Below, in pieces: positions 11,773 to 18,750 of a DNA stretch of 64,000 nt. The notes below the pieces were generated by a model. That model was not told the DNA's origin. It worked only from the letters and a program-made list of their open reading frames with translations, and did no database searches. Source of the DNA: Candidatus Moraniibacteriota bacterium (lineage in GTDB: Bacteria > Patescibacteriota > Minisyncoccia > Moranbacterales > GCA-2747515); assembly GCA_040772365.1 (NCBI GenBank), contig JAXGYI010000003.1, positions 7,234 to 71,233 on the forward strand, given 5' to 3'. Made by a program: the position numbers and the translations under genes. Every line of letters starts with the position of its first letter. Within the stretch, counting starts at the first letter, position 1.

Positions 11773-13104
11773 ATGGATAAACATTCTGCCATCCACGTAC
11801 AAAATATTTCTAAGACGTTTCGCATTCCGCACGAGAAGATTACATCACTGCGCGGGGCAGCGACATCGTTGTTCAAAGACCACTCCTATGAGGAATTTAG
11901 GGCGCTAGACAATGTTGGATTTGAGGTGAAAAAAGGCGAGTTTTTTGGTATCATCGGGCGCAACGGTAGCGGTAAATCTACACTTCTCAAGATTCTTGCC
12001 GGTATCTATACGCCAGATAAAGGCAGCGTCAAGATCAACGGACTCATTTCACCATTTCTGGAATTGGGAATTGGATTCAACATGGAGTTGTCGGGACGTG
12101 ATAACGTTTTTCTTAATGGCACTGTCTTGGGGCTCAGTCACAAGGAGATTGAACAGAAATTCGATGATATTGTACAGTTCTCCGAACTGGAGCGTTTTAT
12201 TGATCAAAAACTCAAAAACTACTCCTCCGGTATGCAAGTGCGCCTGGCATTTGCTGTATCCATTCACGCTAATCGCGAAATTCTTCTCATGGATGAAGTC
12301 TTGGCGGTAGGAGATAGCAACTTTCAGTCGAAGTGTCTGGAAGAGTTTCGAAAGTATAAAGCAATGGGGCGCACTGTTGTTCTAGTAACCCATGATGTGG
12401 ATGTGGTACGTCGCTACTGTGATCGAGCGATGCTGTTGCGCCAAGGTAAGATCGTTTCTATTGGGGATGTGAATAAGGTAGTGGATCAATATGTCTTTGA
12501 CAATATGAGCGATGAAGAGAAACGGCTTTTGGAAGAAGAGAAATATCGTGCAAAAAAAGAAGCAGAGGAGAGAGCAAGAAAAGCGCGAGAGGATAAGATT
12601 AAAATAGCTAATGTAGAAAAAGAACGGCTCGCTTTAGAAAAGAAGAGAACTGAAGAAGAAAAAAAGGCTAAGGAGGAAAAGGAAAGAAATAAGGCTGCTG
12701 AAATCATAAAGGTTGAGTTCCTGGATGCAGATGGAGTTGATAAAAGAGCTTTTGAGACAGGAGAGAAGATTTCAATGAAAATTAAGTATAAGGTTATTCG
12801 ATCTTCTGAAGAGTTAAATTTTGGTATCGGAGTACACGCTGTTTCTGGTGGACAGGTTTTTGGGTATAACACACAAATGGATGATATTGAGGTGCGAGGT
12901 GATAAAACAGAGCTGACGCTAGCATTCGACTCCCTACCTCTTTTACAAGGGGAGTACTTTGTGAATGTTGCTTGTTGGGGCCATATTGAGCAACGTCACT
13001 ATGATTTTAAGCCTAGCTATGCAACGTTAAAATTCTTTGCAAAGGGCGTAAAGAGTAAGTATAGAGGATTTGTTGATATACCGCACAAGTGGATTAATCA
13101 TTAA
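11773..13104 (+). CDS. wzt: ABC transporter ATP-binding protein (Wzt/TagH-like). It has a K/E-rich coiled-coil linker and a C-terminal beta-sandwich carbohydrate-binding-like domain.
   Basis: Walker A GRNGSGKSTLLKILAG, signature YSSGMQVRLAF, Walker B LLMDEVLAVGD. C-terminal ~150 aa resemble the Wzt C-terminal domain. Confidence 0.85.
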   Translation: MDKHSAIHVQNISKTFRIPHEKITSLRGAATSLFKDHSYEEFRALDNVGFEVKKGEFFGIIGRNGSGKSTLLKILAGIYTPDKGSVKINGLISPFLELGIGFNMELSGRDNVFLNGTVLGLSHKEIEQKFDDIVQFSELERFIDQKLKNYSSGMQVRLAFAVSIHANREILLMDEVLAVGDSNFQSKCLEEFRKYKAMGRTVVLVTHDVDVVRRYCDRAMLLRQGKIVSIGDVNKVVDQYVFDNMSDEEKRLLEEEKYRAKKEAEERARKAREDKIKIANVEKERLALEKKRTEEEKKAKEEKERNKAAEIIKVEFLDADGVDKRAFETGEKISMKIKYKVIRSSEELNFGIGVHAVSGGQVFGYNTQMDDIEVRGDKTELTLAFDSLPLLQGEYFVNVACWGHIEQRHYDFKPSYATLKFFAKGVKSKYRGFVDIPHKWINH

Positions 13105-13142
13105 TTTGAAATTTTAATAAATTACTATAATTTGTTAAAACA

Positions 13143-15697: not shown

Positions 15698-18679
15698 TTG
15701 ACTACTTTGATAATGGTGATTATTTATAAAAAAGTGTTTTCTGGTAAAGATTTAATTAACAAAAAGCAACATATGGAGTACTCCTTTAAAAACAAACCTA
15801 AGCTGTCTTTCAAAAAGCCAAGCTTAAATTTAAATGATTTTTCTAAGTATATCAAGGAGGTTTTTCAGTATGGGGAAATTAAGACAAATCCTAAAATATC
15901 AGTAATTATAGTTGCTTATAATGAGGCGGATGATTTAATCCGTTGCATTAATTCATTTGAAAACCAGAAATACCAAAGCTATGAAATTATTGTTTTTGAC
16001 AATGGACTTGATGAAAATACTAAAAAAAAGCTAGAGGATTTAAATCTCACCCATATTATTTCAAAAGAAAATGTTGGTCCAGCAATTGGTAGAAATGTTT
16101 TAGCTTTATATGCTAAAGGTGATTTATTGGTTAGTATTGATGCAGATGGCTATGTTGAAAAGGACTATTTAGAACAAGTCGATAGCTTAATGGAGGATAA
16201 AAACATAATTGCAGCAAGAGGATTGGTCAAGCAATTTGGAAAGAATACAGAGCATTATTTCGAACCAGAGCACTACAATTTAGGAAGTAAACAAATTCCA
16301 TACTTCATTAATATTGAGGGTAATACGGTTATTAGAAAAAATGATTATATAAAAGTGGGCGGAATGGAAAATGACTTATATGGACATGAGGGAATTATTT
16401 TGTCATACAGAATGCATGCATTTTATGATTATGGAAAAGAACAGTTTGTTTATGCTCCGAATCTAATCCTTTATCATAATTTTCATTCTGATAATATTCA
16501 CCTAAAAAGCAAGTTTAAGCGGTATGAGTTGCTAAATTATTTCATTCTCAACAAGTATCCCCTTATTGAAAACTATCTTAATTATTATGAAGAGGTTAAA
16601 AGTTCACTTATCAAGCAAGATATTGGGGGTACAGGTAATGATAAGGCGGGAGAAAATATTAAGATTAAAGCACGAAAGGAGTTTGAAAAAGAGCTTAATC
16701 GTAAAATTGATTCTATTCAAAAAGCAAGAGCGAATAAGGCCAGCAAGAAAAAGGTACTTGACTTTTCCGTTATTATCCCTTGCTACAATTTAGGCAAACT
16801 TTTGCCAACCGCTATTGAGTCTGCAATGCGACAAACTTTGGAAAATATTGAAATTATCGTGGTGGATGACGCATCTCCTGATAAAGAAACGCAAGAGGTT
16901 TTGAGTGAAATGGAGAAGATGGTAAAGGTAATTCGTCTGAAAGAAAATAAAGGCGTTTCTGTAGCGCGTAATGCTGGAATAGAAGTGGCAAGAGGAAAGT
17001 ACACTCTTTGTCTAGACGCAGACGATACAATCGAGCCAACTTACTTGGAAAAAGCTTTTAATATTTTTGAGTCAGATGAGAAGGTGGGCATTGTTAGCTG
17101 TTGGCTAAAGTCATTTGGAGCAACAAATGCGGTTTGGACAGCTAAGGATAATATAGAGATTAGAGACGCTTTGATTAACCCCCCAGTTCATACCGCCTCT
17201 TGTTTTCGCAAAGTAGACTGGGAGGAGGGTGGAATCTATGACCCTAAGCTTAGAGGGTTCGAAGATTGGGATCATTGGCTGAGGATTATGAAAATTCGAC
17301 CTTTAGTGCGAGTGATTCCTGAGTTTTTATTTAACTATTATGTGCGCTTAGGATCTAAGGTGGAAACCTCCAATAAAAATTCCTTTAAACTAACCAGCCA
17401 TATCATTGAAAACCACAAGGATTTATATCAAGAACATTTTCTTTATGTTATTGCTCGAAAGCAGGAGGTCTTTGCTTTAAACGCCAATAAAGAGAGGTTT
17501 AGAGAGTTGGAGCTTAGGAGTAATATGGAGCTTTTAAGGCAAAAGAATGAGGAGATAGGCTTAATGCAGGAGTCTAAGTTTTGGAAGTTAAGAGAATTTT
17601 ACTTAACAATGAAGCATTGGCTTGTTTTTGTGTTCTTGAATCCAAGGAAATTTATTAAAAGTTTGCTTTTTTCTCTAAAGAATTATTTGCAGAAGATTAC
17701 GGTTAGGAGGAAAGCAGAGAAAGCTGAGGCAGAGAAAAAAGAAGACAAAGCTGATGATTTCAAAAGTGATATGAGTGCTATCAAAAAATTTTCCAAGCGT
17801 AACAATAAGCCGTGTGTAAAAATAAAAAAGAGGAAGCTTTCCGTGGTTATGTTAAGCCTGAATAGATTAAAAGACACTAAAGAAACTGTTAGGGCTCTTT
17901 ATGAGAATATCAATTTTGATTTTGAGTTTATTATTTTGGACAACGGATCTGATAGTGATGTGGTTGAGTATCTCAAAAAATTAACAAAACAAAAAAATAA
18001 TATTAAACTAATATTAGAAAAGGAAAATTTAGGATGTGCTGGTGGACGCAATAAAGCATTTAGCTTAGCAACGGGAGATTATATCTTGTCAGTAGATAAT
18101 GATATCATTATTACTAAGTATGCAGTTGAAAACCTAATAGAGACTTTGGAGAGTAGCAAAGAAGTTGTAGGCGCTTGCTGTAAAACAGTTTTTCCTAATG
18201 GAAGCATTCACTTTAATGGTGGAAAGTTTGTAATGGATAAGAAGTTTGTGGAGTTTTCTTTAATTGACAGAGGGAAAAAATATGATGATGAGTCAACTTT
18301 TAAACAATTAGCTTGTGATTGGATTCCAGGTGGGGCTACTATGTGGAAATCATTCATCATTAAAAAAATGACTATTGATCCAAAAATGAAAGGCTCTTTT
18401 GAGGATAATGAGTACTCCATAATGCTTCAAAAGAAAGGATTCGCCTTAAGTAACTGTCCAAAATCAATTGCAATTCACAACCATATTAACTTTAACAAGG
18501 AAGCAAAGGAAGATAGGAGATATATAGAAAGCAGGTATAATCAAGAAAGAATAAAGGCGGCGCTGGTGAGATTCTATCAGAAACATGATTTAATAATAAG
18601 AGACAGATATCTTGGTGAGTTGGGACTAGACATTAATGATGACAAGGCATTAATTGAGTATTTTGAAAAGTATAAGTAA
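15698..18679 (+). CDS. Large multidomain glycosyltransferase with three GT2 (GT-A) domains separated by coiled-coil segments
   Basis: Three GT2 N-terminal signatures (ISVIIVAYNEADDL…, FSVIIPCYNLGKLL…VVDDASPD, LSVVMLSLNRLKDT…) each followed by DxD-containing regions. 993 aa. AT-rich. Confidence 0.75.
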   Translation: MTTLIMVIIYKKVFSGKDLINKKQHMEYSFKNKPKLSFKKPSLNLNDFSKYIKEVFQYGEIKTNPKISVIIVAYNEADDLIRCINSFENQKYQSYEIIVFDNGLDENTKKKLEDLNLTHIISKENVGPAIGRNVLALYAKGDLLVSIDADGYVEKDYLEQVDSLMEDKNIIAARGLVKQFGKNTEHYFEPEHYNLGSKQIPYFINIEGNTVIRKNDYIKVGGMENDLYGHEGIILSYRMHAFYDYGKEQFVYAPNLILYHNFHSDNIHLKSKFKRYELLNYFILNKYPLIENYLNYYEEVKSSLIKQDIGGTGNDKAGENIKIKARKEFEKELNRKIDSIQKARANKASKKKVLDFSVIIPCYNLGKLLPTAIESAMRQTLENIEIIVVDDASPDKETQEVLSEMEKMVKVIRLKENKGVSVARNAGIEVARGKYTLCLDADDTIEPTYLEKAFNIFESDEKVGIVSCWLKSFGATNAVWTAKDNIEIRDALINPPVHTASCFRKVDWEEGGIYDPKLRGFEDWDHWLRIMKIRPLVRVIPEFLFNYYVRLGSKVETSNKNSFKLTSHIIENHKDLYQEHFLYVIARKQEVFALNANKERFRELELRSNMELLRQKNEEIGLMQESKFWKLREFYLTMKHWLVFVFLNPRKFIKSLLFSLKNYLQKITVRRKAEKAEAEKKEDKADDFKSDMSAIKKFSKRNNKPCVKIKKRKLSVVMLSLNRLKDTKETVRALYENINFDFEFIILDNGSDSDVVEYLKKLTKQKNNIKLILEKENLGCAGGRNKAFSLATGDYILSVDNDIIITKYAVENLIETLESSKEVVGACCKTVFPNGSIHFNGGKFVMDKKFVEFSLIDRGKKYDDESTFKQLACDWIPGGATMWKSFIIKKMTIDPKMKGSFEDNEYSIMLQKKGFALSNCPKSIAIHNHINFNKEAKEDRRYIESRYNQERIKAALVRFYQKHDLIIRDRYLGELGLDINDDKALIEYFEKYK

Positions 18680-18750
18680 TACCAAAAAAAACAAAGATAC
18701 CAAGCATAAATAGAGGTAGGGCGTAATACATTTAGATAGACGATAATAAT

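Follow-up and report, generated by a model that had tools for sequence, protein, structure and literature searches.

An exchangeable AT-rich block in a Wzm/Wzt glycan locus

The 64,000-nucleotide stretch of DNA analysed here (64 kb; hereafter the window) belongs to a Candidatus Moraniibacteriota bacterium (assembly GCA_040772365.1, contig JAXGYI010000003.1, positions 7,234 to 71,233) and carries a glycan locus with genes for a Wzm/Wzt ATP-binding cassette (ABC) transporter and several glycosyltransferases (GTs). A block of about 5.6 kb, rich in adenine and thymine (AT), follows the exporter ATPase gene wzt and encodes a putative O-methyltransferase, a predicted integral membrane glycosyltransferase and a large protein with three GT2 domains. 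We consider it probable that this block is the variable, structure-determining centre of the locus and that relatives of lower GC (guanine-plus-cytosine) content passed it to a genome of about 47% GC, in two or more steps of recombination inside the locus and not on a mobile element. The block and its edges comprise the following features (aa, amino acids); all genes of the locus lie on the + strand.

13105-13142, no strand: sharp left edge of the block, a spacer of 38 nt between wzt and the methyltransferase gene, GC 0.105
13143-14147, + strand: putative chain-terminating O-methyltransferase, 334 aa (PF13578, Methyltransf_24)
14144-15694, + strand: integral membrane glycosyltransferase of GT-C fold, 516 aa (GT-C516), distantly PMT_2/GT39/ArnT-like
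15773-18679, + strand: triple-GT2 glycosyltransferase, putative polymerase (three PF00535 matches, 279 bits)
14142-16759, + strand: nested sub-block (GT-C gene and GT2 domain 1), no counterpart in the related locus L011, GC 0.303, the lowest of the block
18826-19023, + strand: gene remnant, 3' end of a coiled-coil glycan enzyme, found by three-frame translation

Composition and edges of the block

The GC content is 0.325 in positions 13100-18700 against 0.467 for the remaining 58 kb of the window, and the lowest-GC stretch of 5.6 kb in the whole 64 kb begins at 13101. The six 1-kb intervals between 13 and 19 kb have GC contents of 0.28-0.36, which lie 4.0-6.8 standard deviations (SD) under the other 1-kb intervals (mean 0.468, SD 0.027 for all those outside 13-19 kb). 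The computed profile is not uniform, and the shift to AT-rich DNA at about 13.1-18.7 kb, claimed by an earlier sequence-only reading of this DNA, is confirmed. The three block genes have values of 0.275, 0.288 and 0.327 for GC content at third codon positions (GC3), compared with 0.40-0.58 in neighbouring and housekeeping genes; first and second positions (GC1 and GC2) are also reduced, so that every codon position is affected. The same reading had described proteins rich in Lys, Asn and Ile and long A/T runs, and the counts agree with it: these three residues make up 0.21-0.28 of the block proteins versus 0.11-0.17 of the flanking glycosyltransferases, and A/T runs of at least 7 occur at 2.7 per kb in the block versus 0.9 per kb elsewhere.

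At the left edge, nucleotide homology to the wzt genes of two related loci, L006 and L011 (described below), stops at 13092, and homology to the methyltransferase gene of L011 begins at 13112. The right edge is stepped, with GC 0.30 at 18680-18749, 0.39 at 18750-19023 and above 0.5 from the GT2 gene at 19027. The flanks are in general richer in GC, as had been proposed, with the qualification that wzm and wzt (10976-13104) are only intermediate (GC 0.41-0.42), yet with a host-like GC3 of 0.41-0.45.

Relatives carry different cassettes in the same slot

The genes that frame the block, compared below with those of related loci, are the following.

9574-10827, + strand: GT4 glycosyltransferase, left flank of the locus
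10976-11767, + strand: wzm, ABC-2 permease of the glycan exporter (PF01061, E 6e-13; NCBIfam Wzm/KpsM-type)
11773-13104, + strand: wzt, ATPase of the exporter (PF00005; PF14524 Wzt_C, 71.6 bits with a cut-off of 30.4)
19027-19944, + strand: GT2 glycosyltransferase, 305 aa (GT2_305), first gene of the conserved right flank, GC 0.504
19958-22312, + strand: two-domain GT2-GT4 glycosyltransferase, 784 aa (GT784), a backbone gene

The transporter pair is encoded together. Wzt consists of a nucleotide-binding domain, a K/E-rich linker (aa ~246-300) and a Wzt_C domain predicted to bind carbohydrate (aa 304-421); its closest solved structures are the WzmWzt chains 8dku and 7k2t (E 1e-64) and it has an NCBIfam match of Wzt/TagH type.

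GT784 was used as the marker of relatedness among loci. In L006, a 16.9-kb contig from a separate sample, GT784 and GT2_305 are 92.5% and 86.6% identical in amino acids to the window proteins, and Wzt has a Wzt_C domain. Elsewhere, GT784 identity is 91% in P0053, 67% in P0054 and 39.3% in L011, a contig of a Candidatus Moranbacteria metagenome-assembled genome (MAG) with GC 0.34 throughout. The P0053 and P0054 contigs stop at the GT2 gene, so that the cassette lies outside their sequence, and a first metagenome scan with GT784 gave no match. Named close homologues of the window proteins come from Candidatus Moranbacteria and Parcubacteria MAGs only; on the strength of these names and of synteny with L011, the host is probably of this lineage, within the Candidate Phyla Radiation (CPR).

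Between the wzt stop and the GT2 start, L006 holds an unrelated cassette of 8.2 kb coding for a Methyltransf_21 protein, a TOD1-coiled-coil-GT2 protein, a 69-aa open reading frame (ORF), a 292-aa GT2-like protein, a 582-aa and a 590-aa protein and an epimerase. AT-richness is a feature of this cassette too (GC 0.27-0.41 versus 0.45-0.57 in its flanks). Three independent contigs (L005, L006 and L007) become alignable with the window again, at the nucleotide level, from 19033-19034 onward. The outer gene order is the same in L011 (GT4, Wzm, Wzt, cassette, GT2, fused GT2/GT4), where the slot is filled by a third type of cassette with genes for a 236-aa methyltransferase, an 868-aa fusion of Methyltransf_24 (MT24), coiled coil and GT2, a 637-aa dual-GT2 protein and an epimerase. 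Each of the three loci (window, L006 and L011) fills the slot between wzt and the GT2 gene with a cassette of its own. Universal presence of the block in the lineage, named in the sequence-only reading as a ground for refutation, can thus be dismissed.

In a second low-GC locus, L014 (PDWJ01011158.1, 1085-3073), wzm-wzt are followed downstream by an MT24-coiled-coil gene, with a PMT-family GT-C gene immediately after it. The Wzt of L014 is short and has no carbohydrate-binding domain. Genes for an APS kinase and for a 229-aa protein that has no annotation separate wzt from the MT24-coiled-coil gene, and a transposase fragment of IS4/5 type follows the GT-C gene.

Foreign ancestry of the cassette genes

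Comparison with L011 separates the block from its flanks. Amino acid identity to L011 is 75.8% for the methyltransferase (aligned to the N-terminal 347 aa of the 868-aa methyltransferase-GT2 fusion) and 78.7% for residues 355-993 of the triple-GT2 protein, against 46.6% for GT4, 52.9% for GT2_305 and 39.3% for GT784 in the backbone. At fourfold-degenerate sites the two cassette genes are 60% identical to L011, versus 15-32% for the backbone, which is saturated. Codon usage of all four block segments is nearer to L011-like usage than to that of the host, the reverse being true of 18 out of 18 host control genes. The epimerases of L006 and L011 are 92% identical in amino acids and 81% at fourfold sites, while the backbone GT2 genes of the same two loci are 54% and 14% identical; modules therefore move between these lineages. 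Amino acid identity, fourfold sites and codon usage agree, and sequence comparison thus points to an ancestry of the cassette genes that is incongruent with that of the flanks and argues strongly for movement of cassette modules from low-GC relatives into a mid-GC (~47%) lineage, on more than one occasion. The donor is not L011 itself. The horizontal acquisition put forward in the sequence-only reading is borne out by the alternative cassettes, the L011-like codon usage, the fourfold identity and a gene remnant at the right junction.

The block could also have been inherited vertically, its AT-richness coming from the amino acid composition of membrane and Lys-rich proteins or from relaxed selection on glycan genes, with no transfer. 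Glycan loci are often AT-rich, the alternative cassette of L006 is AT-rich too, and the low GC1 and GC2 and high Lys, Asn and Ile contents are what such a history would leave. However, GC3 drops as well (0.28-0.33), the block is missing from close relatives, the methyltransferase and GT2 domains 2-3 retain 60% fourfold identity to L011 where the backbone is saturated, and codon usage matches L011. Vertical inheritance is very improbable in the face of these observations, and acquisition from low-GC relatives is retained in what follows.

The block had been regarded as a single import, which does not hold. Homology to L011 is confined to 13112-14141 and 16760-18676, and in L011 a 1.6-kb GT2 segment sits between the two matching parts. 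The breakpoints of the nested sub-block (14142-16759) coincide with the methyltransferase stop and with the linker between GT2 domains 1 and 2, by which one gene was split and a new fusion arose. An independent JGI contig, L002 (JGI 3300002898), spans the two internal junctions and is 98.9% identical to the window over 14037-16947. The block is, judging from these alignments, a mosaic with a nested substitution at 14142-16759.

An exchanged wzt allele

The exporter genes had been assigned to a conserved backbone, an assignment that fails for wzt. Window Wzt is 80.8% identical in amino acids to that of L011 versus 66.6-69% to that of the close relative L006. Over residues 149-443, the part available in L006, it is nearer to L011 than to L006 in all three regions compared, namely the C-terminal part of the nucleotide-binding domain (93% versus 79%), the linker (80% versus 56%) and Wzt_C (76% versus 69%). 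Fourfold identity of wzt is 45% to L011 and 43% to L006, the latter value to be set against 61-80% for the backbone glycosyltransferases of the window and L006. Because window Wzt is nearer to L011 and its fourfold identity to L006 is so far under that of the backbone, wzt is best read from these sequences as an exchanged, deeply diverged allele and not as conserved backbone. Wzm is 74.5% identical to L011 in amino acids, with fourfold sites saturated at 32%, and wzm codon usage is host-like. The host-like GC3 and codon usage of wzm-wzt and the saturated Wzm sites imply that the pair did not arrive with the block.

These results raise the possibility that the whole operon from wzm to the triple-GT2 gene (10976-18679) is a replaceable serotype unit, in which wzm-wzt came earlier or from another donor and the block is the newest layer. 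The closeness of window Wzt to L011 in all three regions, the fourfold identity of 43% to L006 against 61-80% for the backbone, the intermediate GC of wzm and wzt (0.41) and a promoter-like site upstream of wzm are in line with it. On the other side stand the host-like GC3 (0.41-0.45) and codon usage of wzm and wzt and the saturated fourfold identity of Wzm to L011 (32%); moreover, three taxa cannot tell whether the window or L006 swapped wzt. We hold this larger unit to be possible, though we favour the block itself as the exchanged entity. The site in question (10889-10916) is the best promoter-like site of the region and lies just upstream of wzm, which is the probable head of a transcription unit reaching to the triple-GT2 gene; the number of sites in the promoter scan of the region was not above chance, and terminator and Rfam scans gave no regulatory signature above chance.

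Junctions and mode of exchange

A gap of 347 nt separates the triple-GT2 gene from GT2_305 at the right edge. It contains the remnant, which encodes the last ~65 residues of a coiled-coil enzyme (ending in IRQELHVVYTSRFWKLRAMYMTVKHYAIFIFLNPKKFVVKVAKAVKRFLRGSCKS before the stop) with no upstream ORF and is identical in L001 (GCA_040769235.1, JAXGLK010000004.1). Its product is 49% identical over 51 aa to the C-terminus of the 582-aa protein of L006 and 53% identical over 36 aa to the tail of the L011 dual-GT2 protein. An epimerase gene occupies the position of the remnant in L005, L006, L007 and L011. It is possible that the remnant region is expressed as a small tail-only protein, from a 51-codon ORF starting at TTG.

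Scans for domains, repeats and tRNAs detected neither genes for an integrase, a transposase or a tRNA in the block or at its edges nor direct or inverted repeats flanking it. A genomic island brought by a mobile element (insertion sequence, integrase, phage or integrative and conjugative element) would fit the sharp left compositional boundary, and an IS4/5-type transposase fragment does adjoin the analogous genes in L014. Yet the block and its edges show none of the signatures just listed and its breakpoints are gene and domain boundaries inside a syntenic locus, which makes this origin extremely improbable. Breakpoints of that kind and the lack of mobile signatures fit homologous or illegitimate recombination within the locus, and exchange by such recombination is the simplest reading.

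Since the sequence is metagenome-derived and several related contigs end at the edge of the cassette, we also considered a chimera of assembly or binning that would join low-GC and mid-GC contigs. Against a chimera, L001 has the same junctions as the window, the nested junctions are confirmed in the independent contig L002, the joins fall exactly at gene starts and stops with ORFs intact, and no stretch is identical enough for a false join (wzt has only 74% nucleotide identity to L011). We find an artefact of this sort hardly credible and keep to recombination within the locus.

Four contigs from relatives, L005, L007, L008 and L009, end within or just upstream of GT2_305 (equivalent of 18.6-19.9 kb). 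Coexistence of several cassette types or strains in the samples would account for such breaks at the edge. Look-ups of exact copies of the methyltransferase and Wzt gave L001 or no record. Nearly all differences between L001 and the window in 9944-32312 are 1-nt deletions, about half of them beside homopolymers, and they are distributed over the whole locus. The fragmented genes of L001 were considered as real pseudogenes and this was rejected, as spread-out 1-nt deletions look like sequencing errors.

The methyltransferase and its helical spacer

The identity of the first block gene as a methyltransferase, proposed from the sequence-only reading, is upheld by its Methyltransf_24 domain, its fold and the long helix that follows. 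The AlphaFold2 (AF2) model (pLDDT 91.6) has a Rossmann catalytic domain (aa 1-205), an uninterrupted helix (aa 221-300) of 80 residues, ~12 nm if straight, and a helical C-terminal tail (aa 303-333, SKSFQIGSLFFRSLKNPIKW...) rich in aromatic and basic residues. Fold comparison was used for this protein and for GT-C516 because sequence searches of solved structures gave nothing meaningful; the methyltransferase had no match at E < 0.1 to chains of the PDB. Its top Foldseek matches are cation-dependent O-methyltransferases (PaMTH1, COMT, CCoAOMT-like).

The Methyltransf_24 domain is common (>5000 representative clusters), but the architecture of methyltransferase, helix and tail is rare, with ~7 clusters at 44-51% identity, some of them fused to downstream glycosyltransferase domains. 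The module exists in natural length variants of 300 aa (L014), 334 aa (window) and 347 aa (L011). The L011 version of the helix has ~22 extra residues, and across homologues the length varies by about 22-34 residues. The spacer (residues ~225-300) is made of heptad-scale repeats, with a 21-nt tandem repeat at 13811-13861 and recurrence of the peptide EKNQLIQ(S/A)KD. Its architecture is what suggests the labels 'ruler' for this protein and 'serotype-determining' for the cassette, and the length variants offer a natural series for testing ruler function.

The GT-C membrane transferase

The start of GT-C516 overlaps the methyltransferase stop in an ATGA at 14144-14147. The protein has about 11 hydrophobic transmembrane (TM) helices. 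It has no Pfam match above threshold and no NCBIfam match; with the PMT profile it gives E 0.22 and 11.5 bits (cut-off 22.7). A search of 5.8 billion proteins yielded only 26 homologues, of which the nearest is 33% identical; the rest are matches at ~25% identity to PF13231 (PMT_2)/GT39 proteins. When the window protein was aligned with 15 homologues, 7 of the 16 sequences matched PF13231 (best E 3e-9). GT-C516 may therefore be a distant relative of PMT_2/GT39 or a family separate from it. A GT-C profile search of solved structures gave no meaningful match. The AF2 model (predicted TM-score, pTM, 0.81) finds GT-C enzymes in all of its 31 best PDB matches, among them STT3, ALG12, ArnT (5f15), Pmt4, DPY19, PglB and AftB, with probabilities of 0.95-1.00 and query TM-scores of 0.28-0.52. 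The modelled fold and these matches substantiate the earlier assignment of this gene to the GT-C membrane transferases. Invariant in the 16 sequences are D92, H94-P-P-L-Y-Y99 and R169-M-Y171; D92 and H94-P-P-L-Y-Y99 are located between TM1 and TM2, where the first extracytoplasmic loop would be expected. An hhalign comparison of the GT-C516 alignment with the GT-C protein of L014 showed no orthology (probability 1.7).

Members of the PMT_2/GT39 group, such as ArnT, use polyprenyl-phosphate monosaccharide donors. A candidate for making such a donor is encoded further downstream.

36311-37258, + strand: ArnC/GtrB/PgfS-like polyprenyl-phosphate sugar synthase, GT2, 315 aa (PF00535; NCBIfam)

This protein has full-length NCBIfam matches to ArnC (E 2e-53) and PgfS (E 3e-44), both under the equivalog cut-offs. 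Its gene is preceded by a UDP-glucose dehydrogenase gene (34815-36167) and followed by a GT4 gene (37421-38575) and a gene for an LPG_synthase_TM membrane protein (38551-39531); the group at 34815-39531 may form a second, native lipid-linked sugar pathway.

We favour a role of GT-C516 in adding a sugar to the glycan from a polyprenyl-phosphate donor. The enzyme might instead glycosylate proteins, in a PMT-like manner, or attach the finished glycan to its final acceptor, like a ligase. Protein O- and C-mannosyltransferases and oligosaccharyltransferases are among its fold matches, the annotated ORFs of the window include no ligase of WaaL, LCP or Wzy_C type, and GT-C genes recur beside MT24-coiled-coil genes and, as DUF2142, at the end of the L011 locus. 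Conversely, GT-C516 is distantly related in sequence to PMT_2/GT39 proteins, the window codes for an ArnC-like donor synthase and no acceptor protein is evident. Either of these roles seems to us somewhat unlikely, and sugar addition to the glycan remains the preferred function.

The triple-GT2 protein and a recurrent tail motif

The three PF00535 matches agree with the earlier description of the large protein as a triple GT2. The domains are ordered as GT2 domain 1, GT2 domain 2, a coiled coil with a basic aromatic tail SKFWKLR...NPRKF (motif at 17573) and GT2 domain 3. The protein is 968 aa long from ATG 15773 and 993 aa long from TTG 15698 (ORF 15698-18679). The gene probably starts at 15773, since homologues align only from residue 26 (993-aa numbering) and the gene call on the independent contig L002 begins at the equivalent ATG. 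This start leaves a gap of 78 nt after GT-C516. Translational coupling had been proposed at two places in the block: the ATGA at 14144 is read in the sequence, while the coupling at 15694/15698 needs TTG 15698 and becomes doubtful. Residues 26-657 are 42-55% identical to a common family of dual-GT2 proteins of 600-640 aa; residues 355-993 have their 78.7% match in the L011 dual-GT2 protein P0114.

The tail is an instance of a motif, [ST][KRSPF]FW[KRA][LAIMV][RK] followed by Y...K...NP(K/R)(K/R)F, which always stands after a coiled coil. A search of the 64 kb in six frames gave four matches, all in the glycan locus and on the + strand (17573, 18886, 19873 and 22199), in the triple-GT2 protein, the remnant, GT2_305 and GT784. 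The remnant keeps only the end of the coiled coil and the tail motif of its lost enzyme. The methyltransferase has a variant of the motif, and one of its homologues shows the canonical form at the same position. The motif recurs in enzymes of L006, L010 and L011, and nearly all enzymes of the locus have it, native or imported, stand-alone or fused; as a string, no mention of it was found in the open literature.

The tail motif may be a membrane-proximal docking element of the locus enzymes. A bolder proposal has two parts: that the motif is a shared docking or membrane-anchoring code assembling all glycan enzymes into one complex, and that GT-C516 founds a new GT-C family tied to such cassettes. 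Taken jointly, we judge them unlikely. As the cassette enzymes already carry the tail, foreign modules would under such a code work at once in a new host, and the code, if real, would explain why domain-level swapping between distant CPR lineages is tolerated.

Proposed working of the locus

In the course of events that we infer, the methyltransferase module and GT2 domains 2-3 would have come from an L011-like lineage, and the GT-C gene and GT2 domain 1 from an unsampled one. A polyprenyl carrier at the cytoplasmic face would bear the growing glycan, made by the flanking glycosyltransferases and the imported triple-GT2 polymerase. The methyltransferase, held at the end of its ~80-residue (~12 nm) helical spacer, which the C-terminal tail would anchor near the membrane, would cap sufficiently long chains and thereby stop their growth. 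The C-terminal carbohydrate-binding domain of Wzt would recognise capped chains for export by Wzm/Wzt. Outside the membrane, the GT-C enzyme would add a sugar from a polyprenyl-phosphate donor, possibly supplied by the ArnC-like GT2 at 36311-37258. A cassette swap would thus change the glycan. The product in a CPR host would more probably be a glycan linked to the wall or S-layer than a lipopolysaccharide (LPS) O antigen.

Several points weigh against this reading of the block. No donor closer than 79% amino acid identity was found among the 5.8 billion proteins, and the nearest relative of GT-C516 is just 33% identical. The ancestry is read from sequence identities and codon usage, with only three informative comparator loci. 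A genome scan with GT784 returned only same-species fragments (L003-L005), which give no cassette sequence past the junction and are labelled 'uncultured Micavibrio sp.', as is the GTDB species representative, a label that we regard as doubtful. Only the window and L001 display the outer junctions, and L001 is 99.5% identical and perhaps from the same sample. As to function, WbdD is absent from the top 50 fold matches of the methyltransferase, which is not a WbdD homologue, and no initiating polyprenyl-phosphate phosphoglycosyltransferase of WecA or WbaP type is present among the annotated ORFs of the window. The latter enzyme may be encoded elsewhere in the host genome; in L011, a MraY/WecA-like gene (MraY/Glycos_transf_4) adjoins the locus.

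Relation to known systems

ABC-transporter-dependent assembly with chain termination has been described for E. coli O8/O9a and for Klebsiella O3, O5, O7 and O12 (PMC11231755). Glycosyltransferase modules extend the chain, a terminator on a coiled-coil spacer caps long chains and the carbohydrate-binding domain of Wzt admits the capped ones; the terminator proteins act as coiled-coil rulers and are stand-alone or fused to glycosyltransferase modules (PMC11231755). The reference list of the same paper cites transfer of the Klebsiella O3 wb cluster into E. coli (PMC11231755). The window locus resembles the systems of E. coli O8/O9a and Klebsiella pneumoniae O3/O5 in its Wzm and Wzt with a Wzt_C domain, in an enzyme of putative methyl-capping type with N-terminal catalytic domain, long helical spacer and a C-terminus that may be membrane-proximal, in a putative multi-domain glycosyltransferase polymerase and in the movement of the cluster between species by recombination. 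It differs from them in its CPR host, where an LPS O antigen is unlikely, and in the presence of a GT-C gene inside the cassette. Compared with WbdD, the window methyltransferase belongs to Methyltransf_24, is COMT-like, has no kinase domain and shows no match to WbdD in sequence or among its top 50 fold matches; it would resemble WbdD by analogy, in its presumed working, and is not a member of the WbdD family. The domains of the WbdA polymerase are GT4, whereas those of the window protein are GT2.

A likeness in architecture is also found in ORF6 of K. pneumoniae O7, a methyltransferase-kinase with a coiled coil and two GT2 modules, in that terminator, coiled coil and GT2 modules are variably distributed (PMC11231755). 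The fused methyltransferase-coiled-coil-GT2 protein of L011 (868 aa) versus the stand-alone 334-aa protein of the window is the same variation as among O7 ORF6 orthologues (PMC11231755). No relationship to ORF6 in sequence was found; the window enzyme is of another methyltransferase subfamily, with no kinase or carbohydrate-binding module (CBM) domain, and for O7 a CgnL-like fold is reported (PMC11231755).

The presence of a GT-C enzyme in the glycan locus and of an ArnC/GtrB/PgfS-like synthase in the same genome region is also reminiscent of another kind of machinery. Three-component systems for extracytoplasmic glycosylation include GtrABC, ArnC/ArnT, the streptococcal GacI-L and Pgf systems and gmlABC of Klebsiella O2. 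In the window, by contrast, no GtrA-like flippase was identified, the synthase gene lies ~20 kb away in DNA of native GC, and GT-C516 remains under every Pfam threshold, its identity to known proteins not exceeding 33%.

Enterobacterial rfb and cps loci have low-GC serotype cassettes between conserved flanking genes. The window locus shares with them a conserved slot, unrelated gene sets in close relatives, low GC, mosaicism, similarity gradients in the flanks and remnants at junctions. It is distinguished by its CPR lineage, by exchange across genomic GC contents of 34% and 47% and by breakpoints at domain boundaries that create fusions and fissions. Serotype-cassette exchange is known in other bacteria and is here seen in a CPR bacterium.

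The surface glycans of CPR bacteria (Patescibacteria) are almost unstudied, and dependence on contact with a host together with phage pressure makes surface variation likely to be important to these cells. The locus indicates that they use the familiar Wzm/Wzt system with a putative capped-chain strategy and vary the glycan by swapping whole genes and single domains across lineages of very different base composition. It also provides material for tests: a compact stand-alone methyltransferase with its helical spacer, a GT-C enzyme with almost no relatives and a recurrent tail motif. For annotation, the lesson is that the AT-rich dip is the newest layer of a larger mosaic, in which wzt alleles travel with cassettes.

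Other features of the window

The right flank of the locus ends with a further two-domain glycosyltransferase.

22325-24505, + strand: GT2-GT4 glycosyltransferase, 726 aa (GT726)

The region 22325-30000 is variable. GT726 is only 66% identical in L006 and ~90% identical (nucleotides) in L003, gene content downstream of it is different in L008, segments with a DUF5648 domain are repeated at 25605-25891 and 27092-27648, and L001 and the window differ in structure around 25.9-26.1 kb. The remaining window holds ordinary chromosomal genes (ParB, Mur ligases, ComEC, S4, RpoA, HrcA-GrpE-DnaK, MurG, MurC). An identical ribosomal protein S4 is recorded under the whole-genome shotgun (WGS) prefix LSQX01, a biogas-reactor metagenome study. 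The RpoA ORF (43153-43887) codes for only 244 aa, which match just the N-terminal two-thirds of RpoA models; the alpha C-terminal domain is absent from the ORF.

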